A stretch of 64,000 bases of DNA, taken from positions 4,064,001 to 4,128,000 of the forward strand of contig CBDCWI010000002.1 in assembly GCA_965223325.1 (NCBI GenBank), written 5' to 3'. This document shows positions 1-63,395 of this stretch, one piece after another. The position numbers and the translations under genes were made by a program. The first letter of the stretch is position 1; each line of letters starts with the position of its first letter. The notes beneath the pieces are model-generated. The model ran no database searches. It was not told the DNA's origin and saw only the letters and a program-made list of their open reading frames with translations. Origin of the DNA: Candidatus Multivoradales bacterium (GTDB taxonomy: Bacteria; Acidobacteriota; Thermoanaerobaculia; Multivoradales; Multivoraceae).

Positions 1-1248
1 CTCGGCAACGACATGCAGCTGACCTCGATCAGTGGCTACGAGTCGGTCGACGCTGATGGTTTCGGTGACATCGACGGCGGCAACCCGACGGGTCCGGGTT
101 TCATTCCGTTTGGCTCTCACACCGGTGGCTTCAACGAAGTCGAACAGCTGACCCAGGAGATCCGTTTGAGTCAGGACCATGGCGAAGGCTTCCGTTGGCA
201 GGCCGGTGCGTTCCTCTTCGACGCCGAGCTCGACAGCATCACCCGAGTCTTCTTTATCGACGACAGTCGAACCGTCGAAGACAGCTCCGCCTGGGCCTTG
301 TTCGGCCAGGGCACCAAGGCGCTCAACGATCGCCTCGACCTGACCATCGGACTGCGCTACACCGAAGACGAGAAAGACCTCACGATCCTCGCTTCGCCGG
401 TTCCCAACGCTCCGGTGAGTGTCTCCGACGAGCAGGTGAGCTGGGACGCCAGCGTGGTCTATCAGGCAACCGACGACACCAATCTCTACGGTCGTGTTTC
501 CTCCGGCTTCCGTGGGCCGTCGATCCAGGGTCGGGACATCGCCTTCTTCGGCTCACCGTCGACGGCGCGTTCCGAGACGATCTTGTCGTACGAAGTGGGC
601 AGCAAGTCCGAGATCGCCAACGGGCGCGTGCGCCTCAACACCGCCCTCTTCTACTACACGGTTGACGACCAGCAGTTCACTGCCATCGGTGGTGACGGCA
701 ACTTCATTCGCCTGGTCAACGCCGCAGAGGGTCAGGGTCAGGGTCTCGAGTTCGACCTCAAGTGGTTGGCAACCAATCGCTTGCAGCTGGGCGTCGGGCT
801 CGGTCTCTCTGACACCGAGATCAACGACCCGAACCTGGCCGTCGCGACCTGCGGCTCAGGCCAGTGCACGGTACTCGATCCGCTCGACGGCAACGGCAAC
901 GCTCTCGTCGACGGCAACCCGTTCCCCAACGCCCCCGAGTACACCTACAACCTGAGCGCCGACTACACGATTCCAATCGGTGATGGTGGCCTGTTGTTGT
1001 CAGCCGACTACGTGGTGATTGGCGATACCAACTTCTTCCTCTACGAGTCGGCCGAGTTCAACATCGACGAGAACCCCGAACTCGGTCTTCGTATCGGTTA
1101 CGCGTGGGCCGGGCAGGAGATCGCGCTCTTCGGTCGCAACGTCACCGACGAGGAGAACCTGATCGGTGGGATCGACTTCAACAACAACACTGGTTTCGTC
1201 AACGAACCGCGGACCTACGGCGTCACGTACAAGCGCTTTGTGTTCTAA
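1..1248 (+). CDS. TonB-dependent outer-membrane receptor (5'-truncated by window edge)
   Basis: Beta-barrel-type sequence (GLRYTEDEK, YEVGSKS, N-x-TDE, PRTYGV) with C-terminal Phe; frame open from window start. Confidence 0.9.
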   Translation, partial: LGNDMQLTSISGYESVDADGFGDIDGGNPTGPGFIPFGSHTGGFNEVEQLTQEIRLSQDHGEGFRWQAGAFLFDAELDSITRVFFIDDSRTVEDSSAWALFGQGTKALNDRLDLTIGLRYTEDEKDLTILASPVPNAPVSVSDEQVSWDASVVYQATDDTNLYGRVSSGFRGPSIQGRDIAFFGSPSTARSETILSYEVGSKSEIANGRVRLNTALFYYTVDDQQFTAIGGDGNFIRLVNAAEGQGQGLEFDLKWLATNRLQLGVGLGLSDTEINDPNLAVATCGSGQCTVLDPLDGNGNALVDGNPFPNAPEYTYNLSADYTIPIGDGGLLLSADYVVIGDTNFFLYESAEFNIDENPELGLRIGYAWAGQEIALFGRNVTDEENLIGGIDFNNNTGFVNEPRTYGVTYKRFVF

Positions 1249-1480
1249 CGAAAGACGTGGTTGACGCCGTTGGGGCGTTTTCCTGGCGTTGGTTGAATGT
1301 GGTCGCTGTTTGGGCGTAGTACCTCCGCTGAGTGGTTACCACGTCTTTCGTTAGACGTCCTCTCCCCCCTTGGCGTCCCCCCAGGGGGGGCGGCGCAAGC
1401 GGTCCGTCGCGCGTGCCGGTTGCGGCAGGGTGCCGCCCTGTAGTGGGCGTCGCTGGCCTTCGTTTCGCCTGTCGCGCGCC
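1244..1480 (+). repeat. Stop-codon-anchored structured element, copy A (single)
   Basis: 18-bp inverted repeat TCTAACGAAAGACGTGGT (1244-1261) / ACCACGTCTTTCGTTAGA (1338-1355), C-run/G-run hairpin, CGGCGCAAGCGGTCCGT at 1391, GTCGCGCGCC at 1471; motifs shared with elements at 5483, 41024, 50210. Confidence 0.85.
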
Positions 1481-1545
1481 GCTGAGAGATGCCAGCCGCC
1501 CGGCTACCATGGCGGGGAGCCTCGACGACCTTTCTACGGAGAATC

Positions 1546-2802
1546 ATGAAGCCCAGCACCGCGACAAGCCCCGACCTTGCGCCCGAAGGCCATGAGCGCT
1601 TGGCCTGGGCGCGGCGCAATATGCCGGTCCTGCGCGGCCTGGAGGAGGAGTTCGCCAGGACCCAGCCGCTGGCCGGTCGCAATGTGGTGGTCAGTGTGCA
1701 CCTGGAGGCCAAGACCGCCTACCTGGCGCTGGTCCTGTGTGCCGGGGGGGCACGGGTGGCGGTGACGGGGAGCAACGCCGGCTCGACCAAGGACTCGGTG
1801 GTTGCGGCGCTGGTGGAACGTGGGCTGCATGTTTATGCGCGGCACGGGGCGTCGCCCGAGGAGATGCATCAGTTCCTCCACGACGCGCTCGATCTCGAAC
1901 CCCAGGTGGTGATCGATGACGGCGGAGACATCGTCGAAGTCCTGCATGACGAGCGAGCGGAGTTGCTGCCTCAGGTGCTCGGTGCCTGTGAAGAGACCAC
2001 CACCGGTGTCTTGCGGGCCCGGGCGCGCAGTCGGGCGGGCAAGCTCGCCTTCCCGGTGCTGCTCATCAACGACGCGCGTTGCAAGCACCTGTTCGACAAC
2101 GTCTACGGGACCGGCGAGTCGGTGTGGGCAGCGGTGATGCGGGCTGGCAACGTGGCAGTCGCCGGGAAGACGGTCGCGATCGCGGGCTTCGGTTGGTGTG
2201 GGCGCGGCTGTGCGCTGCGCGCGAGTGGTCTGGGTGCGCGTGTGATCGTCAGTGAGGTTGACCCGGTGAAGGCGCTCGATGCCACGATGAATGGCTATCA
2301 GGTCCTGCCGTTGGTGGAAGCCTGTCGCCAGGCCGACTTCGTTTTGACGGTCACCGGTCTACGCAACACGTTGCGACGAGAGCACTTCGAGGCCATGAAG
2401 AACGGCGCCTTCATCGCCAACGCCGGTCACTTCCGTTCGGAGGTCGACGTTCCTGCCCTGGAGGACTTGGGCGTAGAGCGCAGCCGGGAGCGTGAAACGA
2501 TCGAAGGCTTCCGAATGAGCGACGATCGGTGGCTCTACCTGCTCGGCAATGGGAACATCGTCAACATTGCCTGTGGTGATGGACATCCCGCCGAGATCAT
2601 GGACCTCTCGTTCTCGTTGCAGGCCCTCACCGCTCGCTACGTTACCGAGCAGGCAGGCACGCTCGCCCGCGACACCCTTCCGGTTCCAGAAGCCATCGAC
2701 CTCGAGGTGGCGCGTCGCAAACTCGAGAGCATGGGGGTTTCGATTGACGATCTCTCGGCCGAGCAGGAGGCCTACCGTGACCACTGGCGCACCGACGTTT
2801 GA
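1546..2802 (+). CDS. ahcY: Adenosylhomocysteinase family (short archaeal/Firmicutes-like type; possibly S-inosylhomocysteine hydrolase)
   Basis: Motifs HLEAKT, DDGGD, EETTTG, KHLFDNVYGTGES, GFGWCG, NAGHF, GHPAEIMDLSF; GGAGA RBS before ATG 1546. Confidence 0.93.
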   Translation: MKPSTATSPDLAPEGHERLAWARRNMPVLRGLEEEFARTQPLAGRNVVVSVHLEAKTAYLALVLCAGGARVAVTGSNAGSTKDSVVAALVERGLHVYARHGASPEEMHQFLHDALDLEPQVVIDDGGDIVEVLHDERAELLPQVLGACEETTTGVLRARARSRAGKLAFPVLLINDARCKHLFDNVYGTGESVWAAVMRAGNVAVAGKTVAIAGFGWCGRGCALRASGLGARVIVSEVDPVKALDATMNGYQVLPLVEACRQADFVLTVTGLRNTLRREHFEAMKNGAFIANAGHFRSEVDVPALEDLGVERSRERETIEGFRMSDDRWLYLLGNGNIVNIACGDGHPAEIMDLSFSLQALTARYVTEQAGTLARDTLPVPEAIDLEVARRKLESMGVSIDDLSAEQEAYRDHWRTDV

Positions 2803-4224: not shown

Positions 4225-4995
4225 ATGACCGATCCTTCCGCCAGCATGCCAGGCTCACCGTTCGGAACGACCCGCACTCGGGTGACCGACAGCTACGCCG
4301 TGCTCGCTCCCGACGGTCACGTGCTGGCTCCGCTGGCGTCGTGGCGAAACACGCAAGGGGTGATCCTGATTTCGCCGGCCATGGGGGCCGCCTTCGTGCA
4401 GTACCTGGCCCTGGCCGAGGAAGGCTCATCGACCGACCACGCAGCTCAGGGCATCGAGCGCTTCATCTACGTCGAGGCGGGCGAAGCGCGTTTCGAATCG
4501 CCGGCAGCCAACGCCTCCGTGCTCGCAGCCGGCCACTACATCTTCGTGCCTGCCGACACCGAACACCACCTCGAGGCCACCCAGACGTCGCGCTTGTGGG
4601 TCTTCGAGAAACCGTTCGAGCGCCGCGCCGGCACAGCGCTGCCCGAGGTCGTCGTCGGTGACACCGCTCGAGTCGAGGGCGTACCCTTCATGGGCGATGA
4701 AGATGCAGTTCTCAAGACGCTTCTCCCCGACGAGCCCGAGTTCGATATGGCGGTCAACCTCTTCACCTACCAGTCGGGAGCGACCCTGCCGTTCGTCGAG
4801 ACCCACATCATGGAGCACGGCCTCTTGATGGTCGAGGGCATGGGTGTCTACCGGCTCGGAGACGATTGGCACCCGGTGCAACAGGGTGACGTGATCTGGT
4901 TGGCGCCCTTTTGCCCGCAGTGGTTCGTCGCGATGGGAAAGCAGCCCGCCTCGTACCTCTACTACAAAGACGTGAACAGGGACCCTCTCGCATGA
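4225..4995 (+). CDS. allE: (S)-ureidoglycine aminohydrolase (bicupin)
   Basis: PFVETHIMEHGL and YLYYKDVNRDP motifs; purine-catabolic context. Confidence 0.9.
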   Translation: MTDPSASMPGSPFGTTRTRVTDSYAVLAPDGHVLAPLASWRNTQGVILISPAMGAAFVQYLALAEEGSSTDHAAQGIERFIYVEAGEARFESPAANASVLAAGHYIFVPADTEHHLEATQTSRLWVFEKPFERRAGTALPEVVVGDTARVEGVPFMGDEDAVLKTLLPDEPEFDMAVNLFTYQSGATLPFVETHIMEHGLLMVEGMGVYRLGDDWHPVQQGDVIWLAPFCPQWFVAMGKQPASYLYYKDVNRDPLA

Positions 4996-5486
4996 CCGAG
5001 CCGTTTCCCGAGCGCGACATGGTGCAGCGGTTTCTCAGTCGCGCGATCGACCTCTCACGCGAGAAGATGCGTGCCGGCGAAGGCGGACCCTTCGGTGCAG
5101 TCATTGCGCGCGGCGACGAGGTGATCGCCGAGGGTTGGAACCGCGTGACCTCGTCGTGTGATCCCACCGCCCACGCCGAAGTGGTGGCCATTCGGCACGC
5201 CAGCGAAGGCACCGGAACTTTCGATCTCAGCGGTGCGATCATCTACTCGAGCTGCGAACCCTGCCCGATGTGCCTCGGTGCCATCTATTGGGCGCGGCTC
5301 GACGGCCTGGTCTATGCGAACACACGCCACGAAGCGGCGCGCATTGGCTTTGACGACGAGCACTTCTACGACCAGATGGGCCTGCCGATGGGAATGCAGA
5401 AACTGCCCACCCGTCACCTCACCAGCAATGCCGCACGGGCGGTGTTCGATGAGTGGTTAGAGAAGGCCGATCGCGTGGAGTACTAG
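4992..5486 (+). CDS. guaD: Guanine deaminase, cytidine-deaminase fold
   Basis: GGPFGAVI, DPTAHAE, SCEPCPMC, C-terminal Tyr; ATGA overlap with allE. Confidence 0.82.
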   Translation: MTEPFPERDMVQRFLSRAIDLSREKMRAGEGGPFGAVIARGDEVIAEGWNRVTSSCDPTAHAEVVAIRHASEGTGTFDLSGAIIYSSCEPCPMCLGAIYWARLDGLVYANTRHEAARIGFDDEHFYDQMGLPMGMQKLPTRHLTSNAARAVFDEWLEKADRVEY

Positions 5487-6713
5487 CTTCCCCCGTGGTG
5501 GCACGTAGCGGGAGCCGTTGCCGTTTTGGTGTTTCTGTTGAGGTGGTTGTGGCGCCTTTTTGTTTTTCGGTGGGTCGTTTACCACGGGGGAAGCTAGCGT
5601 CACATCTGCGGCGCAAGCGGTCCGTCTTGCGTTCTTCTTCCTGGGCGCTCGCCCTGTCGTGGCGTCGGTGGTGTTCGTAGATTGGTCGCGCGCCGCGGAT
5701 TCTTGGCTTCGATGGAACAACTGGATCCGATAGGAACCGGGTCGTTGTACGTTGGCTCGTGGTGGCACGTAGCGGGAGCCGTTGCCGTTTTGGTGTTTCT
5801 GTTGAGGTGGTTGTGGCGCCTTTTTGTTTTTCGGCGGGTCGTTTACCACGGGGGAAGCTAGCGTCACATCTGCGGCGCAAGCGGTCCGTCTTGCGTTCTT
5901 CTTCCTGGGCGCTCGCCCTGTCGTGGCGTCGGTGGTGTTCGTAGATTGGTCGCGCGCCGCGGATTCTTGGCTTCGATGGAACAACTGGATCCGATAGGAA
6001 CCGGGTCGTTGTACGTTGGCTCGTGGTGGCACGTAGCGGGAGCCGTTGCCGTTTTGGTGTTTCTGTTGAGGTGGTTGTGGCGCCTTTTGGTTTTTCGGCG
6101 GGTCGTTTACCACGGGGGAAGCTAGCGTCACATCTGCGGCGCAAGCGGTCCGTCTTGCGTTCTTCTTCCTGGGCGCTCGCCCTGTCGTGGCGTCGGTGGT
6201 GTTCGTAGATTGGTCGCGCGCCGCGGATTCTTGGCTTCGATGGAACAACTGGATCCGATAGGAACCGGGTCGTTGTACGTTGGCTCGTGGTGGCACGTAG
6301 CGGGAGCCGTTGCCGTTTTGGTGTTTCTGTTGAGGTGGTTGTGGCGGTTTTTGTTTTTCGGTGGGTCGTTTACCACGGGGGAAGCTAGCGTCACATCTGC
6401 GGCGCAAGCGGTCCGTCGTGCGTTCTTCTTCCTGGGCGCTCGCCCTGTCGTGGCGTCGGTGGTGTTCGTAGATTGGTCGCGCGCCGCGGATTCTTGGCTT
6501 CGATGGAACAACTGGATCCGATAGGAACCGGGTCGTTGTACGTTGGCTCGTGGTGGCACGTAGCGGGAGCCGTTGCCGTTTTAGTGTTTCTGTTGAGGTG
6601 GTTGTGGCGCCTTTTTGTTTTTCGGTGGGTCGTTTACCACGGTGGAAGCTAGCGTCACATCTGCGGCGCAAGCGGTCCGTCGTGCGTTCTTCTTCCTGGG
6701 CGCTCGCCCTGTC
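5483..6713 (+). repeat. Stop-codon-anchored element copy B, tandem array of ~4.6 x 264 bp
   Basis: Units start CGTGGTGGCACG at 5494, 5758, 6022, 6286, 6549; IR CTAGCTTCCCCCGTGGT (5483-5499) / ACCACGGGGGAAGCTAG (5581-5597); family motifs in each unit. Confidence 0.95.
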
Positions 6714-6741
6714 CGCGCGTTGCGACCCTGCCTCCCTTGTC

Positions 6742-9700
6742 TCATTCTTTCTCGCTGCCGCCAAGCACGCGCAGGATCTCTTCGTGGGTTGCCGGTAGCT
6801 GAAGGTTTCGCGAGCACCCTCTCGCCTGGGCCAGTGCGTCTTTGACTGCGGTGAACACGGCGATCGCCAGCATCAGCGGCGGTTCACCAACGGCCTTGGT
6901 GCTGCGCAGGTTCTTGTGGTTGAGGTCATTGTCGATGAAGTCGATGTTCATGACCGGCGGCAGGTCGCTGACGGCGGGGATCTTGTAGGTCGTGGGTGAG
7001 TGGGAGAGGAGCGCACCGCCCGGGTCGTAGACCAGTTCTTCGGCGGTGACCCAGCCGATTCCCTGAACGAGGCCGCCGATGACCTGGCCGCGTTCGATTT
7101 CGAAGTTGATGGGCTTGCCGATATCCATCAGCACGTCCAGTCGCTCGACCTGCAGCGTGCCGAAGTCGCGGTCGATGAGCACCTCTGCGACACAGCCGCC
7201 GGTGGTGAAGTAGTAGAAGGGCGTTCCGCGACCGGTTTCGCGGTTGAAATCCACTCCCGGCGTGGCGTAAAAGCCTCGCGCGCCGAGGTCGACGCGTTCG
7301 GTGTGGGCCTTCTTTATCAGCTCCTGGAAGGTCAACCGACGGGTCGGCGCGCGGCGGTCGAAGACTTCGCCGCAGTCGAAGACCACCGCTTCCGGTGACG
7401 CCACGCGGCCCTGTTTGCGACTAGCGAAGTGATCAGCGGCCAGGGTAGCCAAGCGTCGGCGAATGGTTGCGCAAGCGCGCACTGCGGCGGTGCCGTTCAG
7501 GTCCGTGCTTGCTGAGGCAGCTGTTGGGGAGGTGTTGTTGTTCTTTTCCGTCGACGTCTGGAGCACGACGACTCGCCGTGGGTCGATGGAAAACTCTTCG
7601 GCGACGACCTGGGCGATCTTTGTGTTCACTCCCTGGCCCATCTCAGTGGCCCCGGTCGAAACCTGCACCGTGCCGTCGGTGAACACGTTGACCAAGGCGT
7701 TGGCCTGGTTGAGGGTCTTGTTGGTGAACGAGATTCCGAACTTTACTGGCACCAGGGACAGGCCGCGAAGGTACGTTTCGTTCGACTGGTTGAACTGCCT
7801 GATCTCCTCGCGCCGTGCGTTGTAGTCGGCGTCGCGCGCGAGGCGCGGCATGATCTCGGGCAACAGGTTCGAGACCACGGGTTGCCCGTAGGGGGTCGTG
7901 TTGGATCTCTCATTCCCCGGATCGGGGTCGCGTGCGTAGAGGTTGGCCGTGCGCACCTCGAGCGAGTCAAGATCGAGATGCTGTGCGACTTCTTCCATCA
8001 CCGTTTCGATGACGGCCATACCCTGGGGGCCGCCGAAGCCACGAAATGCTGTGTTGGGCGGCAGGTTGGTGCGGCAGACCTGTGCGGTGATCCTGACCGC
8101 CGGTAGGTAGTAGGCGTTGTCTAGATGAAGCATCAGGCGCTCGAGCACCGCGGTCGACAGGTCGGCGAATGCGCCGCCATTGGTGCGTACCTCGAAGTCC
8201 GCCGCGAGAATGTGACCGTCGCCGTCGAAACCGATGCGATAACCCACCAGGGCTTCGTGGCGTTTGCCGGTCAGTTTCATGTCGTCGTCTTTGCTGTAGA
8301 CGACGCGAGCAGGCCGGCCGGTTTGCCTGGCGACCAGCGCTGCCATCAGTGCCGGGATCGCAGCTTGGGTTTCTTTACCGCCGAAAGCGCCGCCCATGCG
8401 CTTCACCTCGCAGATCACCTGGTGCATTCCGAGATCCAGGACCTCTGCGGCGACCGCCTGGATCTCGGTTGGGTTCTGGGTCGACGAGATGATGGTGAGT
8501 TCGTCGTTCTCGCGCGGAATGGCGAGGGCAGCCTGGCTCTCGAGGTAGAACTGCTCCTGACCTCCGGTGCGCAGGCTGCCTTCAAGCTCATGCGATGCCG
8601 CTTTGAAAGCCTTCGCCAGGCCGCCGCGGGCGATGACGCGTTGGGGACCCAGGAACTCGCCTCGTTCCTCGGCCTCTTCGATTCGAAGAGTCGGCTCGAG
8701 CTTCTGAGCCTCGATGACCACCAGCTTCTGTGCCGCTTTCAGTGCGTGGCGCGAGGTTGCTGCGAGAACCACCAGAGGCTGACCCAGGTAGTGGAACTCT
8801 CTCTTGGGGAGAAACGGCTCGTCGTGGAAAATCGGCCCAAAGGGACGATGGTGCGGTAGGTCGGCTGCGGTGAAGACTCCCTCGACACCCGGCACATTGC
8901 GCGCCGCCCTTGTGTCGATGCGTTCGATCGTGCCGCGCGCATGCGGGGCGCCGACAAAGCCGACCACCAGCTCGCCCTCACGGTGAGGCAGGTCTTCGAC
9001 GTATGGAGCGCTGCCCGTCACGTGGCCGCTCGCAGAGTCGTGATGAAGCGAGTTTGGATCCGGTGGGGCAGCTGCCGTGACCGCCTCGAGAGCGAGCCCA
9101 CACTCTCGTTCATCTGGAGGCGTTCGCTTCCAGCCGGCGTCGACGTCTCGCCACGTGCGCAGAAGGACGTTGGCGGCCAACTGCAGGCGGTACTCGGCCC
9201 GGCCGCGCACGTCGGTGATGGGGGTGATCTCACCTTGCGCTATCTGACCGGCTCTTGCGAACAGCTCTTCACTTACAGTCTCGCCGGCGAGTAGGGCCTC
9301 GGTCTCTGGAAGCCGCATCACGACGGGTCCGACACCGCCCATCACGACTTTGGGATCGCTGATCACACCCGCATCGTCAGCGAAGAAGCGGATGGCAGCG
9401 GTAAAGATCGAAATGTCGAGATCCAAGCGGCGTGAAACCTTGAACAACCGAAACACTTCGTCCGAACGTGGGATCTCGAATCGGATGCGCGCCAGCAGTT
9501 CGCCGCGCTCGAGGAGCGTTTCCTTGTAGCCGGTGTAGAAACCGTCGATCGGTAGCCAGCGCGCCCCTTTCGCACTCACCAGCTCGAGCTGTGCGTCGCA
9601 GGCGATCAGACACGGAATCGCATCGCCGATCGGAGAGGCGTTCATCAAGTTGCCACCGATGGTTCCCAAGTGGCGGATCTGGGGGGCGCCAAAGACGTCG

Positions 9701-39487: not shown

Positions 39488-41023
39488 TTGCAACTAGAAG
39501 GATCTCTCAACGAAATCGCGGTCGCACCGCTACTCGAGCGGGTCGGTGCCCTGGGCAAAACCGGCATCCTCACGATTCACAGTGAAAGCGACATCATCGC
39601 GGTCACCTTCCTGGATGGGCGAATCGTGGCAGCCGATGCGCTCAACGAACCGATCGACGAAGGTCTCGGCCAGGTTCTGATCAGCCAGGGCCTGCTTACC
39701 GAAGAGCGCTTCACGGGCATGCTCGAGGACGCTCGCGGGGCGAGTCGCCGCCTGTCGCATCACCTGGTGGAGCGGGCAGTGGTGGGTCGCGACCAGGTCC
39801 TCGAGGCGGTGCGCCTGCAGACGTATCGCCTGTTGCTTCGCCTGCTGCGCTGGAACGAAGGCGAGTGGAACATCTTTGTCGGCGACGAGATCTCCTACGA
39901 GGACGGCATCCGCCCGATTGCGGTGGAAGAGGTGCTCGTTCGGGCGCAGGGGGACCTGGGTGACGAATCACCCGTTGATGGCGTCCTGCCGGAACTCGAA
40001 ACCACCTGGGAGCGTAGCCCCGACACCCGCACCATCAAGATCCTCGGTATCGACGGAGATACTCCGAGTGGCGATGAGACCGAGGTGTGGGTCACGGCGG
40101 CTCAGCACGCCCTGTTGCGCGAGAGCGAAGGCGGCTGCTTCGGCACCTCGCTGCTCACCCGTGCTGGGCTCGATGAGTACGAGGTGCGTTGGGGTCTCTC
40201 GCAGCTGCGCAACCTCGGCATGGTCAACGAACGCCAGCAAACGGAGCTCGAGGTCGGCGAGCACACTCTCGGTGGAGGGGGTCTCGGCAGTCTCGACGAC
40301 CAGGTTCGCGATCCGCTGCGCGAAACCGGCAGCCACTCGTTCCTCGGCGACACCGACGCTTCGCTGGGAGAGCTGCTCTCCGGGGCCCCGGTCGAAGCCG
40401 AAGCTGATTTCCTTCGCGACACTGGCTCATTCGGCGGGCTGGTGCCGCCGCCACCCACCGGCCAGCGACCAGTTTCAGCCGGCCAGACCGGTGTCCACGA
40501 GAAGGTCACGCCGCCTCCCAAGTCCGCGGCTCCTAGCCGTCACAAGGCGCGGTCGATTCTGCGGGACTTCGTCGATGTCTGGTTGGGGCGCACCATGGCG
40601 CTCGGCTTCTTCCTGGTCGTCGTGCTGGCCTTTGCGCTCATGCCGGACCGCAACGGGTTGTTCTTCCCCTACCCTTGGCAGGAACGTCAACGTGAGGCAT
40701 TCGAGAGCGCCCAGCGTGCTTCTCAGGCCGCCAAGCTCGATCGCGCGGTGCGTTCCTACTACCTGCTCTATGGGCGCTTCCCCGAACGTCTCGGAGCCCT
40801 CTCGGCTCTCGAGCTCTTGAGTCCCAACGATCAGGTCGACAGCCGGGGTCGGCAGCTGCAGTACTCCTCAGCCAAGACTAGCTACACCCTGCAGCCGCTT
40901 CGCGATGGCCAGCCGGTGCCGGGTCTCGAACGCACCTACGACGTGGCGGAAGACTTCCTGCTCAGCCCGGAGTTCGTGCGGGTGCAGAGAAACGAGCGCA
41001 GCCCGGTGGTTCTTCTGGATTGA
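39488..41023 (+). CDS. DUF4388-domain membrane protein
   Basis: LEGSLNEI...KTGILTI N-terminus, WNEGEW, C-terminal TM followed by GRFPERL...DSRGRQLQY (pseudopilin-like) segment. Confidence 0.72.
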   Translation: MQLEGSLNEIAVAPLLERVGALGKTGILTIHSESDIIAVTFLDGRIVAADALNEPIDEGLGQVLISQGLLTEERFTGMLEDARGASRRLSHHLVERAVVGRDQVLEAVRLQTYRLLLRLLRWNEGEWNIFVGDEISYEDGIRPIAVEEVLVRAQGDLGDESPVDGVLPELETTWERSPDTRTIKILGIDGDTPSGDETEVWVTAAQHALLRESEGGCFGTSLLTRAGLDEYEVRWGLSQLRNLGMVNERQQTELEVGEHTLGGGGLGSLDDQVRDPLRETGSHSFLGDTDASLGELLSGAPVEAEADFLRDTGSFGGLVPPPPTGQRPVSAGQTGVHEKVTPPPKSAAPSRHKARSILRDFVDVWLGRTMALGFFLVVVLAFALMPDRNGLFFPYPWQERQREAFESAQRASQAAKLDRAVRSYYLLYGRFPERLGALSALELLSPNDQVDSRGRQLQYSSAKTSYTLQPLRDGQPVPGLERTYDVAEDFLLSPEFVRVQRNERSPVVLLD

Positions 41024-42110
41024 TTGAGGCGGGCGTGGTTGGTCGCGGTTGTAGCGCGGGCCGGCGTTTCTTTCTTTGTTGGTGGATGGGGTGGCCGGTT
41101 GACGGTGCGAGGTGGTTACCACGCCCGCCTCAACCGGTCTTCTCCCCCCTTGGGATTGAGGCGGGCGTGGTTGGTCGCGGTTGTGGCGCGGGCCGGCGTT
41201 TCTTTCTTTGTTGGTGGATGGGGTGGCCGGTTGGCTTTGTGAGGTGGTTACCACGCCCGCCTCAATCGGTCTTCTCCCCCCTTGGGATTGAGGCGGGCGT
41301 GGTTGGTCGCGGTTGTAGCGCGGGCCGGCGTTTCTTTCTTTGTTGGTGGATGGGGTGGCCGGTTGACGGTGCGAGGTTGGTTACCACGCCCGCCTCAACC
41401 GGTCTTCTCCCCCCCTTGGTATCCCCCCAGGGGGACGGCGCAAGCGGTCCGTGGCGCTGGCCTTCTTTGTGGGGCCCTGGTTCCCTGCACTTGCGGCGTC
41501 GGCCTTCGTTTCGCTTGTCGCGCGCCTTTGCCGGACTTCGGGACTGAAGCGCGAGGTGCCTTCCGCGCTGGTTAGCGCGGGCCGGCGTTTCTTTCTTTGT
41601 TGGTGGATGGGGTGGCCGGTTGGCTTTGTGAGGTGGTTACCACGCCCGCCTCAATCGGTCTTCTCCCCCCTTGGCATCCCCCCAGGGGGACGGCGCAAGC
41701 GGTCCGTGGCGCTGGCCTTCTTTGTGGGGCCTGGTTCCCTGCACTTGCGGCGTCGGCCTTCGTTTCGCTTGTCGCGCGCCTTGCCGGACTTCGGGACTGA
41801 AGCGGCGGTGGTTTCGTGGCGGTTTGTAGCGCGGGCCGGCGTTTCTTTCTTTGTTGGTGGATGGGGTGGCCGGTTGGCTTTGTGAGGTGGTTACCACGCC
41901 CGCCTCAACCGGTCTTCTCCCCCCTTGGTATCCCCCCAGGGGGACGGCGCAAGCGGTCCGTGGCGCTGGCCTTCTTTGTGGGGCCTGGTTCCCTGCACTT
42001 GCGGCGTCGGCCTTCGTTTCGCTTGTCGCGCGCCTTTGCCGGACTTCGGGACTGAAGCGCGAGGTGCCTTCCGCGCTGGTTAGCGCGGGCCGGCGTTTCT
42101 TTCTTTGTTG
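41024..42110 (+). repeat. Stop-codon-anchored element copy C: 3 x 132 bp followed by ~3 x 254-257 bp
   Basis: TTGAGGCGGGCGTGGT at 41024, 41156, 41288 with partner ACCACGCCCGCCTCAA; TAGCGCGGGCCGGCG recurs at 41316, 41573, 41827, 42081; family motifs present. Confidence 0.93.
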
Positions 42111-49277: not shown

Positions 49278-50210
49278 AGTCGGCAAACGCCACGGAGCGC
49301 TTGCGCCGACGCCCCGCTTTGTGCAGGCCAGGGGAGAGGCATCGTTGGGAGGGGGTGTGGTTTGGAGGAGTAGCAACCGCGAGGTCGCCGCCAACCTCGG
49401 GACGGTCCACCAGGCGTGAACACCAAGACTGCACCCAGCGACGCGCAGTCCGTGGGGTTAGCGCGTCCGGAGAGGCGCGCGACGATCCCTCGTCTACGAC
49501 GATCGCTGCTGCAGGGGTACGGCTTCTGCAGTCGGCAAACGCCACGGAGCGCTTGCGCCGACGCCCCGCTTTGTGCAGGCCAGGGGAGAGGCATCGTTGG
49601 GCGGGGGTGTGGTTTGGAGGAGTAGCAACCGCGAGGTCGCCGCCAACCTCGGGACGGTCCACCAGGCGTGAACACCAAGACTGCACCCAGCGACGCGCAG
49701 TCCGTGGGGTTAGCGCGTCCGGAGAGGCGCGCGACGGTCCCTCGTCTACGACGATCGCTGCTGCAGGGGTATGGCTTCCGCAGTCGGCAAACGCCACGGA
49801 GCGCTTGCGCCGACGCCCCGCTTTGTGCAGGCCAGGGGAGAGGCATCGTTGGGAGGGGGTGTGGTTTGGAGGAGTAGCAACCGCGAGGTCGCCGCCAACC
49901 TCGGGACGGTCCACCAGGCGTGAACACCAAGACTGCACCCAGCGACGCGCAGTCCGTGGGGTTAGCGCGTCCGGAGAGGCGCGCGACGGTCCCTCGCCCA
50001 CGACGATCGCTGCTGCAGGGGTATGGCTTCCGCAGTCGGCAAACGCCACGGACCGCTTGCGCCGACGCCCCCCTTGGGGGACCCGGGGGGAGAAAGACGT
50101 TGATTCTGGGTGTGGTAACGACGTCTTCCATGCACGAGGTCGCCCCCGCAACCAAATCACTCCACAATCAACGGCACTCCCATCATCGACAAGACCACAC
50201 CCAGAATCAA
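49278..50210 (-). repeat. Stop-codon-anchored element copy D with 3 x 252 bp tandem array
   Basis: IR arms at 50194-50210 and 50100-50116 (TTGATTCTGGGTGTGGT); AGTCGGCAAAC recurs at 49278, 49530, 49782, 50034; family motifs on the minus strand. Confidence 0.93.
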
Positions 50211-50981
50211 TCAGAACTGAACCTTCTGGACAAAGAAGTCGGAGGGAGAGACTTTGCCTTCAGCCAAGGCCTTCGCGTCGGCCGGCCCGATGAGGAACTG
50301 GCCAGAGCGTTCGTTGCTCCGGTCGACCATGAGGACTTCGAAGGCCGCGAGCTGGCGATGGGCTGGTTTCACTTCGAGGAAACCGTGGGCGACAGCTTCG
50401 AGAGCCTCGAACACTTCTTTGGCTCCCGGTGCCTGCAGGTGAATCACCGCGCGGTCGGCGCTCGTGCCCTGAAAGACTTCTGGCCGGCGGATGCCGCGGT
50501 TCTCGAGCGCCTTGACAATGGCCTCGGCGAGCCCCGCGTCGGGGAGCCGCTCGCGACGGAGGACCTGCAGATCTGGATAGCCGGCTCGGGTCTTGCGGAT
50601 CTGAGGCCCAGAGTTGCTGCGGCCTGTGCTGAGCCGTCGACTGCCGATCGCGGCCCCGGGTGTCTGGTTGTTTCGGTTGACGTCGCTCGTGGTGAGCGGC
50701 CTGGCGCCGTCGTCGCCCAGGACCCTTGTGCTGTTGCCGAGGTTGTTGGTGTTGAAGCTCTTGGTCTTCTCGACGTCGACCTCAGATAGCGGGATCGAGG
50801 TCTGTGAGCCATTCGTGCGGGTGAAGAAGGCGCGGTCCCCGCGCACCTCGTAGGGGCCCTGGGCGTCGATCTGTTGACCGGTCTTGAGCACAATCGTGTA
50901 GGCCGAGGCGAGAGCGGCGAAGAAACTCGAGATCACAAAGACGATGAGAACGACGCGGACAGGGAAGAGAAGACGAGACAT
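50211..50981 (-). CDS. Secreted hypothetical protein
   Basis: Signal peptide (ALA-SA), GGAG RBS, GC3-biased codons. Confidence 0.7.
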   Translation of the reverse strand: MSRLLFPVRVVLIVFVISSFFAALASAYTIVLKTGQQIDAQGPYEVRGDRAFFTRTNGSQTSIPLSEVDVEKTKSFNTNNLGNSTRVLGDDGARPLTTSDVNRNNQTPGAAIGSRRLSTGRSNSGPQIRKTRAGYPDLQVLRRERLPDAGLAEAIVKALENRGIRRPEVFQGTSADRAVIHLQAPGAKEVFEALEAVAHGFLEVKPAHRQLAAFEVLMVDRSNERSGQFLIGPADAKALAEGKVSPSDFFVQKVQF

Positions 50982-62555: not shown

Positions 62556-63395
62556 ATGGCGACTAGAAAGAAAGCGAAACGCAAGAAGGCGAAACGCAAG
62601 ACCGCGAAACGCAAGACCGCGAAGAGGCGGACCACGAGGAAGAAGGCAACACGCAAGAAGGCCAAGCGCAAGACCAAGAAGAAGGCAACACGCAAGAAGG
62701 CCAAGCGCAAGACCAAGAAGAAGGCCAAGCGCAAGACGGCGAAGCGCAAGACCAGGAAGAAGGCCAAGCGCAAGACGGCAAAGCGTAAGACCAGGAAGAA
62801 GGCCAAGCGCAAGACGGCGAAGCGTAAGACCAGGAAGAAGGCCAAGCGCAAGACGGCGAAGCGTAAGACCAAGAAGAAGGCCAAGCGCAAGACGGCGAAG
62901 CGTAAGACCAGGAAGAAGGCCAAGCGCAAGACGGCGAAGCGTAAGACCAGGAAGAAGGCCAAGCGCAAGACGGCGAAGCGTAAGACCAGGAAGAAGGCCA
63001 AGCGCAAGACGGCGAAGCGTAAGACCAGGAAGAAGGCCAAGCGCAAGACGGCGAAGCGTAAGACCAGGAAGAAGGCCAAGCGCAAGACAGCGAAGCGTAA
63101 GACCAAGAAGAAGGCCAAGCGCAAGACGGCGAAGCGTAAGACCAGGAAGAAGGCCAAGCGCAAGACGGCAAAGCGTAAGACCAGGAAGAAGGCCAAGCGC
63201 AAGACGGCAAAGCGTAAGACCAGGAAGAAGGCTACGCGTAAGAAGGCCAAGCGTAAGACCAAGAAGAAGGCTACGCGTAAGAAGGCCAAGCGTCGGACCA
63301 AGAAGAAGGCTACGCGTAAGAAGGCCAAGCGTCGGACCAAGAAGAAGGCCACGCGCAAGAAGGCCAAGCGCAGGACGACCCGCAGAAGGCGCTAG
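62556..63395 (+). CDS. Histone H1-like / Hc2-like basic protein built from 13-aa repeats
   Basis: GGAGG RBS, 279 aa of only K/R/A/T after Met, 39-bp tandem units with synonymous variation, downstream terminator. Confidence 0.82.
   Translation: MATRKKAKRKKAKRKTAKRKTAKRRTTRKKATRKKAKRKTKKKATRKKAKRKTKKKAKRKTAKRKTRKKAKRKTAKRKTRKKAKRKTAKRKTRKKAKRKTAKRKTKKKAKRKTAKRKTRKKAKRKTAKRKTRKKAKRKTAKRKTRKKAKRKTAKRKTRKKAKRKTAKRKTRKKAKRKTAKRKTKKKAKRKTAKRKTRKKAKRKTAKRKTRKKAKRKTAKRKTRKKATRKKAKRKTKKKATRKKAKRRTKKKATRKKAKRRTKKKATRKKAKRRTTRRRR

Follow-up and report, generated by a model that had tools for sequence, protein, structure and literature searches.

A stop-codon hairpin as the probable head of a lineage-specific, non-coding repeat in a Candidatus Multivoradales genome

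In a 64,000-nt stretch of a Candidatus Multivoradales bacterium genome (contig CBDCWI010000002.1, positions 4,064,001 to 4,128,000; hereafter the window, whose numbering is used below), a long hairpin covers the stop codon of a guanine/cytidine-deaminase-like gene and stands at the head of a tandem array, array B (Table 1). The open reading frame (ORF) of the gene, 4911..5486, matches Pfam dCMP_cyt_deam_1 (E 1.3e-23) and closes with the codons GAG TAC TAG. The left arm of the hairpin (5483-5499) consists of the C of the Tyr codon, the TAG, a 7-nt variable box (CTTCCCC) and a conserved inner box (CGTGGT), and this sequence, CTAGCTTCCCCCGTGGT, is the perfect reverse complement of ACCACGGGGGAAGCTAG at 5581-5597. 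When the whole window was searched for the arm pattern with at most 1 mismatch, 6 matches were found, with 0 expected from 100 shuffles: 1 on the minus strand at 5483-5499, 4 exact ones on the plus strand at 5581, 5845, 6109 and 6372, and one with one substitution at 6636. The right-arm repeats thus extend over 5845-5861, 6109-6125, 6372-6388 and 6636-6652. An earlier note on this DNA had described a right arm repeated in every 264-bp unit, unit 5 differing by one substitution, a single full left arm that spans the last base of the Tyr codon and TAG, and TTGGCT before units 2-5; the search and the sequence itself, which has ...GTTGGCT ahead of these four units, bear out all three observations.

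The 17-bp stem dominates the predicted fold of this 125-nt hairpin stretch on both strands. The predicted folding energy is -56.1 kcal/mol on the plus strand (z -4.35) and -45.0 kcal/mol on the minus strand (z -5.72), and for either strand 0/200 shuffles were as good. In the core of unit 1, TCAC..TGCGGCGCAAGCGGTCCG pairs with GTCGCGCGCCGCGGATTC as a covarying long-range helix. The units of array B begin at the inner box CGTGGT (breakpoint offset 0), and the final unit ends inside the core. A 151-nt contig from an independent metagenome run (X6) is identical over 5469-5619, across the junction of stop codon and hairpin, indicating that the junction is not an assembly artefact. A solo copy in the window, copy A, is a variant with a C-rich insert and has a TAA (1246-1248) inside its left arm; its arm TCTAACGAAAGACGTGGT pairs with its complement, and the pairing takes in the TC of the last Phe codon together with the TAA, as the earlier note had also reported (TC-TAA). 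Taken with the family described below, the hairpin at 5483-5597 is probably the head of one copy of a lineage-specific, non-coding and formerly mobile repeat of the kind that includes repetitive extragenic palindromic (REP) sequences, their paired forms (REPINs) and miniature inverted-repeat transposable elements (MITEs).

Table 1 Positions of the hairpin, its array and the other family copies in the window, with an intron example from elsewhere in the genome
Feature	Position	Strand	Basis or remark
Upstream host gene, guanine/cytidine-deaminase-like	4992..5486	+	Stop TAG (5484-5486) inside left arm
Hairpin left arm, array B	5483..5499	+	Sole full left arm in array B
Hairpin loop, G/T-rich, 81 nt	5500..5580	+	Homologous to loops of other family copies (alignment)
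Hairpin right arm, ACCACG + GGGGAAG + CTAG	5581..5597	+	Opens conserved core
Core and tail, unit 1	5598..5757	+	nhmmer family; RNAalifold, pair counts
Tandem array B	5494..6713	+	TRF: period 264, 4.6 copies, 98% matches
Copy A, solo, behind TonB-dependent receptor	1244..1485	+	Hairpin 1244-1355; core match 1390-1485
TTGA-armed subfamily array	41021..42110	+	Three 132-bp hairpin units, then ~254-bp units
TTGA-armed subfamily array, reverse	49278..50213	-	252-bp units at 49278-50075
Group II intron example	L029 (G000:C2:698600-700900), ~229-2138		None of 14 full copies in window

The family was collected by iterated nhmmer searches seeded with the part of the unit that starts at the right arm, which gave 101, 174 and 177 core matches in successive iterations and 67 clusters in the genome. 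Insertion of the same intron has split 13 copies, whose distal halves form clusters of their own; without these 13 clusters the family occupies 54 sites, and at many of them the copies form tandem arrays with 2-7 units and periods of 130-325 bp. The copy number per site ranges from 1 to 7, and some units are truncated. The 5' half of the hairpin in a full copy is formed by (N)TAG, a variable box of ~7 nt and CGTGGT(T), followed by a G/T-rich loop of ~80 nt, and the 3' half by GTCGTT(T)ACCACG, the complementary box and CTA(N'), followed by 1-2 free bases. The stem is 17-20 bp long across the family. The core of ~150 nt then runs TCAC...TTGCGGCGCAAGCGGTCCG...GTCGCGCGCCGCGGATTC...GGCTTCGATGGAA and passes into a loosely conserved tail. 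Similarity between copies from different sites does not exceed 91% and is mostly 72-83%; units inside arrays mostly match at 90% or more (range 84-99%).

The family appears to be confined to a narrow lineage. A covariance model of the core, R1, matched 0/40 relatives, one of them of the same genus, with 74 candidates scored per genome. An exact-pattern scan of a wider genome collection, from which records of the source genome or of near-identical genomes may have been left out, gave 15 scattered matches, and we judge these to be chance matches because all scored at most 22.7 bits with R1. A literature search, which covered PMC3733652 apart from the supplementary files that may list acidobacterial repeats, found no published account of the family.

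The position of the copies relative to genes is nearly uniform. An automatic rule, which required an ORF of 97 or more codons to stop inside the left arm or no more than a few bases from it, picked out 45/54 sites. Inspection added five docked loci (8, 27, 47, 56 and 61), so that 50/54 overlap or abut a stop codon. Of the four undocked loci, locus 19 has its stop 11 nt upstream, locus 31 is degenerate, locus 37 is not at the end of any long ORF, and at locus 57 an ORF reads nine codons into the element. The stops at the 45 sites of the automatic rule are TAG at 38, TGA at 5 and TAA at 2; TAG makes up only 33.5% of the stops among crude genome-wide ORFs (p 2.6e-12), and at 34 of the 38 TAG sites all of the codon is paired within the stem. 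The hosts are unrelated genes and include those for IMPDH, RecA, argininosuccinate synthase (ArgG), RibBA, an aminoacyl-tRNA synthetase, TonB receptors and autotransporters, among others. On a crude ORF map with a convergent background of 42%, the genes around the copies are convergent in 34 cases and co-directional in 33.

Two pairs of side observations concern single docked loci. IMPDH (L186, G000:C1:155933-155935) ends in Ser, where 10/11 relatives have Arg or Lys and one has an extra Gly after Arg, and RibBA (L198, G000:C2:3962285-3962287) ends in Ile, where 11/11 relatives have Val; both terminal codons may have been changed by the element or by its stem. At locus 56 (G000:C2:3706440 region) the core follows directly on the TAG of a 477-codon ORF, without the hairpin, and at locus 47 (G000:C2:2426889 region) a 9+9 palindrome with no loop, CTAGTGAGG/CCTCACTAG, is all that is left of the hairpin. 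The two variants resemble products of deletion between the two CTAGs, or else intermediate forms.

The pairing of the stem is strongly constrained. In an alignment of 40 loci, 88.3% of the cells of the 21-pair stem hold standard pairs, compared with 66.2% after shuffling (0/500 as high), and the covariation score is 0.579 compared with 0.151 in the shuffles. Stem registers shifted by 1-3 columns are paired in 32-48%. The 17 inner pairs are paired in 38-40 of the 40 loci. In the variable box each pair occurs in three or four pair types, and changed pairs (columns 5-20) have always changed on both sides.

Structure that is kept while sequence varies is also a mark of integron attC sites, hairpins that are recognised by structure, have conserved boxes with variable paired spacers and start at the stop codon of the preceding gene. 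Like these, the arms vary between two conserved boxes and the hairpin starts at a stop codon, which could make the copies folded recombination sites that mark cassette ends. The hosts, however, are dispersed core housekeeping genes in conserved contexts (the deaminase and its convergent neighbour, for example, are syntenic in relatives), there are neither cassette arrays nor an integrase context, and the hairpin is followed by a conserved 150-nt core and by tandem arrays. We regard an attC-type identity as very improbable.

The earlier note had proposed that the left arm is the host target and that the internal arm is a guide carried by the element or copied on insertion, and it had named two comparisons beforehand: sites without the element, and arms at different loci. 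Neither comparison agrees with this proposal. Among the related genomes 10/10 deaminase orthologues end at the same Tyr codon, and 10/10 continue with TGA and unrelated downstream sequence, none with TAGCTTCCCC. A 16-nt arm, TAGCGAGGGGCG(T/C)GGT, is common, together with its complement, to five unrelated genes (loci 18, 25, 29, 40 and 64), where flank-matched arms would differ. Moreover, the element has an NTAG of its own even at loci 6, 21, 39 and 52, whose host genes stop 1-5 nt further upstream. These three results therefore support the alternative that the note itself had given, namely that the left arm is borne by the element and that amplification was partial.

The related genomes bound this question only loosely, because they are distant (51-79% protein identity for the orthologues compared). 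Six other host genes have mixed stops at the same position in relatives, and relatives often have TAG there (loc29, loc40, IMPDH 7/11, RibBA 7/11); for the FeS-assembly protein the relatives (n=11) have TGA in 7, TAG in 3 and TAA in 1, and the C-terminus of ArgG is variable. Among the contigs of runs X5-X7, which are identical short pieces from the same organism, no contig joined across an empty site.

The arrays are secondary local amplifications. In 25/30 arrays the 5' breakpoint falls within -10..+18 of the inner box, and because the breakpoints lie in this inner part of the left arm, the full left arm is preserved in the first unit alone. The spread of the breakpoints points to hairpin-associated slippage rather than to a fixed cleavage site. 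The period of array B is a multiple of 3, a 435-codon minus-strand ORF (5457..6764) runs across the array, and the frame from the TAG at 5484 to the next in-frame TAG at 5595 (111 nt) is open, as if the repeat encoded a protein or a read-through peptide. The periods of other arrays (254, 260, 235, 305 and 256) are not multiples of 3, indels between copies do not come in threes, and the next in-frame stop lies at scattered distances across loci, from 3 nt to >130 nt. On these three grounds the coding and read-through readings were rejected, and we give them next to no chance.

One part of the guide idea stood. Although most of the left arm comes with the element, the outermost pairs of the stem track the last codon of the host. 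Among the loci whose stop is fully paired, base -1, the third position of the last sense codon, is paired at 38/38 (permutation mean 17.9) and base -2 at 25/38 (permutation mean 12.8), while bases -3 and -4 are at chance. The right arm has TTA opposite TAA stops (loci 26 and 59) and TCA opposite TGA stops (loci 3 and 20). Members of the identical-arm subfamily differ in the outer 2-3 nt, which fit the host codon at 5/5 loci, and A in the right-arm tail occurs solely opposite a host T (15/15). Hosts that end in TC-TAG are enriched (12/34 compared with 9.7%), and so are hosts that end in AC-TAG.

All of these matches, and the lack of the outer left arm in later array units, could be read as base-pair-guided docking, in which the tail CTA(N')(N'') of the internal arm pairs with the host (N)(N)TAG on insertion, as a splint or guide in the manner of the insertion sequence (IS) elements IS200/IS605. 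The hairpin would then be a docking device whose pairing with the last bases and stop of the host sets the landing site or templates repair of the junction, with the element handled as the antisense strand. Such a device would jointly explain the docking at 50/54 sites, the perfect match at -1 and the missing outer left arm of later units, and would in effect be a short, programmable guide to the places where reading frames end. We consider it quite unlikely. The left arm is mostly element-borne, the array breakpoints are scattered over ~29 nt instead of marking one cleavage site, the orientation shows no replication-strand bias, and no enzyme could be linked to the family. Pairing over 4-6 nt is also insufficient on its own to account for a preference for stop codons over other TAGs. 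Because copies at different sites are at most 91% alike, there has been ample time for one or two compensatory substitutions, and thus for the flank match to arise after insertion. The extra pairing also stops where the free bases stop, as just 1-2 changeable bases lie between CTA and the conserved TCAC motif. The short flank match is, in our view, more likely a consequence of keeping the stem than a cause of targeting. Template-switch correction of quasi-palindromes, an established process according to the abstract of PMC7202029, would supply a mechanism for such an origin.

The mismatches within the helices differ between the strands. Counted on the gene strand, the internal wobble-type mismatches comprise 9 A.C and 0 G.T in the arms, and 4 A.C and 0 G.T in the core helix, which together makes 13:0. 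Since A.C on the gene strand corresponds to G.U or G.T on the opposite strand, the constrained fold would be that of the strand opposite the upstream gene, which argues against a simple hairpin in the 3' untranslated region (UTR) of the mRNA. The core helix shows compensatory changes at three pairs (for example GC 29 / CG 9). RNAalifold gave no further conserved helix in the core beyond this long-range one, and helices proposed by hand failed by eye.

A structured RNA that serves the host would share several of these features. It could be a ~270-nt non-coding RNA from the strand opposite the gene, or a 3'-UTR module that covers the stop and acts on mRNA 3'-end stability, termination or antisense transcription, and not selfish DNA at all. 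The covarying stem and long-range helix, the 13:0 asymmetry towards the strand opposite the gene, the position fixed relative to stop codons and a group II intron inserted in the sense of the same strand in 13 cores are what such an RNA would lead one to expect. The family is, however, not found in the 40 relatives, including the one of the same genus, its host genes are functionally unrelated, it has 1-7 copies per site with truncated units, and no conserved fold beyond one helix was found in the core. The promoter scan of 5300-6900 gave 0 sigma-70-like sites, and the terminator-like matches in this region are small local hairpins peculiar to array B. Rfam (Rfam 15) had 0 matches at gathering score in the window, the best sub-threshold match being 13.1 bits. 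A host-serving RNA is, in our view, unlikely.

The intron is an observation in its own right. It is 1910 nt long, matches Rfam RF02005 (180.6 bits) and carries a 521-aa RVT_1 ORF. Of its 14 full copies genome-wide 12 are 100% identical, and 13 are inserted at the same position of the core (GCGGCG|CAAGCGG), with their sense on the strand opposite the upstream gene; the remaining copy is ectopic, at a ...CTG|CAAGCG site. The repeat family serves this very recently active group II intron as its preferred, multi-copy homing site.

We turn to mobility, on which the preferred reading of a formerly mobile repeat depends. The elements carry no ORF. Y1 transposases (PF01797) have 28 Pfam matches genome-wide, in frames of 170-410 aa, several of them multi-copy and clustered near contig ends. 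The sole adjacency of such a gene to the family, at locus 14, is taken as chance. No long-distance arm pairs that could belong to a parent element were found in the genome apart from those caused by arrays or introns. The best ORF resembling a REP-associated tyrosine transposase (RAYT) has 272 aa (L001, G000:C1:1304577-1307894), and its best NCBIfam match is the REP-associated tyrosine transposase model, below cut-off. For IS110 there are 4 PF01548 matches, none of them within 25 kb of any family locus. Relative to the replication fork, 34 copies are co-directional and 33 are not.

Several points weigh against this reading. No target-site duplication or defined 3' end is recognisable in the 3' flanks, no transposase is linked to the family, and no empty-versus-filled polymorphism was found; because of these three results, mobility is inferred solely from the dispersal of copies behind unrelated genes, and the spread of the copies is likewise drawn from their distribution, with no empty-versus-filled pair at close range. 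In this genome no Y1 gene is bracketed by family arms, and the RAYT-like ORF of L001 is flanked by inverted runs (L001 1309-1340 and 2221-2286) of a different, 11-nt CCCGGGC-type repeat. The unbiased 34:33 orientation fits poorly with single-strand transposition of the IS200/IS605 type. Docking at 50/54 sites is stronger than choice of TAG sites followed by selection would easily give, and the -2 match (25/38) together with the TC-TAG and AC-TAG enrichment would also fit a target chosen by sequence match. The folding strand and the kind of molecule, RNA or single-stranded DNA, would follow from the mismatch asymmetry alone. As a separate matter, the ORF of L001 with its 11-nt repeats looks like the REPtron of another repeat family.

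Including copy A and array B, the window holds four family sites, the other two being TTGA-armed arrays. In the forward one, the TGA (41021-41023) of ORF 39488..41023 directly adjoins the left arm TTGAGGCGGGCGTGGT. In the reverse one, the TGA (50211-50213, minus strand) of ORF 50211..50981 adjoins the left arm (50210-50194), and the right arm lies at 50116-50100. Between its right arm and the GGCGCAAGCGG motif this subfamily has a C-run/G-run insert (TCTCCCCCC...GGGGG), which replaces the TCAC...TTGC segment of the main subfamily (41140-41160, 41395-41440 and 50060-50095). Two further observations stand apart from the family. A 39-bp tandem repeat at 62637-63370 of the window (18.8 copies, 96% matches, with 15-bp periodicities on its flanks) may encode a basic repeat protein, since 39 is divisible by 3. 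Along the whole of C1 the cumulative GC skew declines monotonically, and on C2 it has its extremes at 0.35 and 3.5 Mb, so that C1 and C2 may be pieces of one 6.7-Mb replicon and not two chromosomes.

Among known systems the closest kinds are GTAG-tagged REP/REPIN sequences and MITEs; the family behaves like a REPIN or a MITE yet falls outside the definition of either. The REPIN concept reportedly goes back to Bertels and Rainey in 2011. Like REP and REPIN sequences, the family is dispersed, extragenic and palindromic, lies at gene 3' ends singly or in clusters, and has an (N)TAG terminus that supplies the stop, with TAG at 38/45 of the sites found by the automatic rule; the genome is also rich in RAYT-like Y1 genes (28 Pfam matches). 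In contrast to a REP, a short imperfect palindrome of 20-40 bp, the element is ~10x longer, with a hairpin of ~115 nt and a structured 150-nt core, and its (C/G/T)TAG is paired with CTA(G/C/A) in 38/45 loci, where the 5' GTAG tag of a REP is unpaired. The arms are not themselves palindromes, the arrays run head to tail and not as alternating bacterial interspersed mosaic elements, and unlike in a REPtron no RAYT gene is flanked by family repeats. GTAG-tagged REP termini often supply the TAG stop of flanking ORFs, and Acidobacteria have their own group of Y1 transposases associated with terminal inverted repeats (PMC3733652).

With bacterial MITEs the family shares a non-autonomous size class, terminal inverted repeats, an intergenic place beside gene ends and the possibility of folding in transcripts. 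Bacterial MITEs that fold into long hairpins include Correia/CREE of Neisseria, ERIC/IRU, RUP and SPRITE. The family differs from them in that the middle of its arms is hypervariable yet complementary, its inverted repeat brackets the first 115 nt only, its 3' end is fuzzy with no recognisable target-site duplication, and no parent IS with the same ends was found in the genome. An internal sequence beside the foot of the hairpin that complements the host flank at the left end recalls IS200/IS605 elements (IS608, ISDra2) and the bridge RNAs of IS110; here, however, the match reaches just 1-2 host bases past the TAG of the element, no TnpA or IS110 transposase adjoins, there is no ORF, and the orientation to replication is unbiased (34:33), unlike that of IS200/IS605. 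Mycobacterial interspersed repetitive units (MIRUs) are 46-101 bp long, lie within operons and contain small coupled ORFs. Like such MIRU variable-number tandem repeats, the family forms intergenic tandem arrays of variable copy number that abut or overlap stops, but its units are 130-325 bp long, non-coding and headed by a long hairpin.

In the reading we favour, of a formerly mobile non-coding repeat, the element would be ~270-300 nt long and comprise two modules, the hairpin, both of whose arms would be its own, and a ~150-nt core closed by the covarying long-range helix. Copies would long ago have dispersed to unrelated genes and settled at their 3' ends, with the terminal TAG of the element serving as the host stop codon or sitting on it, and many would later have multiplied locally, through replication slippage or unequal exchange at the hairpin. 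The genome's RAYT-like Y1 transposases are candidates for the enzyme that moved them, by analogy with REP systems. A constraint on the fold of the strand opposite the upstream gene, as RNA or single-stranded DNA, would keep the arms complementary, and compensatory change, possibly aided by templated correction of the quasi-palindrome, would push the stem outwards. The stem would in this way come to extend over the host stop codon and 1-2 bases of the last codon, up to the limit of the free bases before the core.

For annotation, the family accounts for many odd intergenic arrays in this genome, and its arrays may move stop codons or change the residue with which housekeeping proteins end. It provides a well-characterised case of a recurring class, hairpin repeats that sit exactly on stop codons with arms that change freely while remaining paired. 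With the family it becomes possible to test what brings such elements to ORF ends, and which of two processes maintains their stems, selection on a folded single strand or templated correction.

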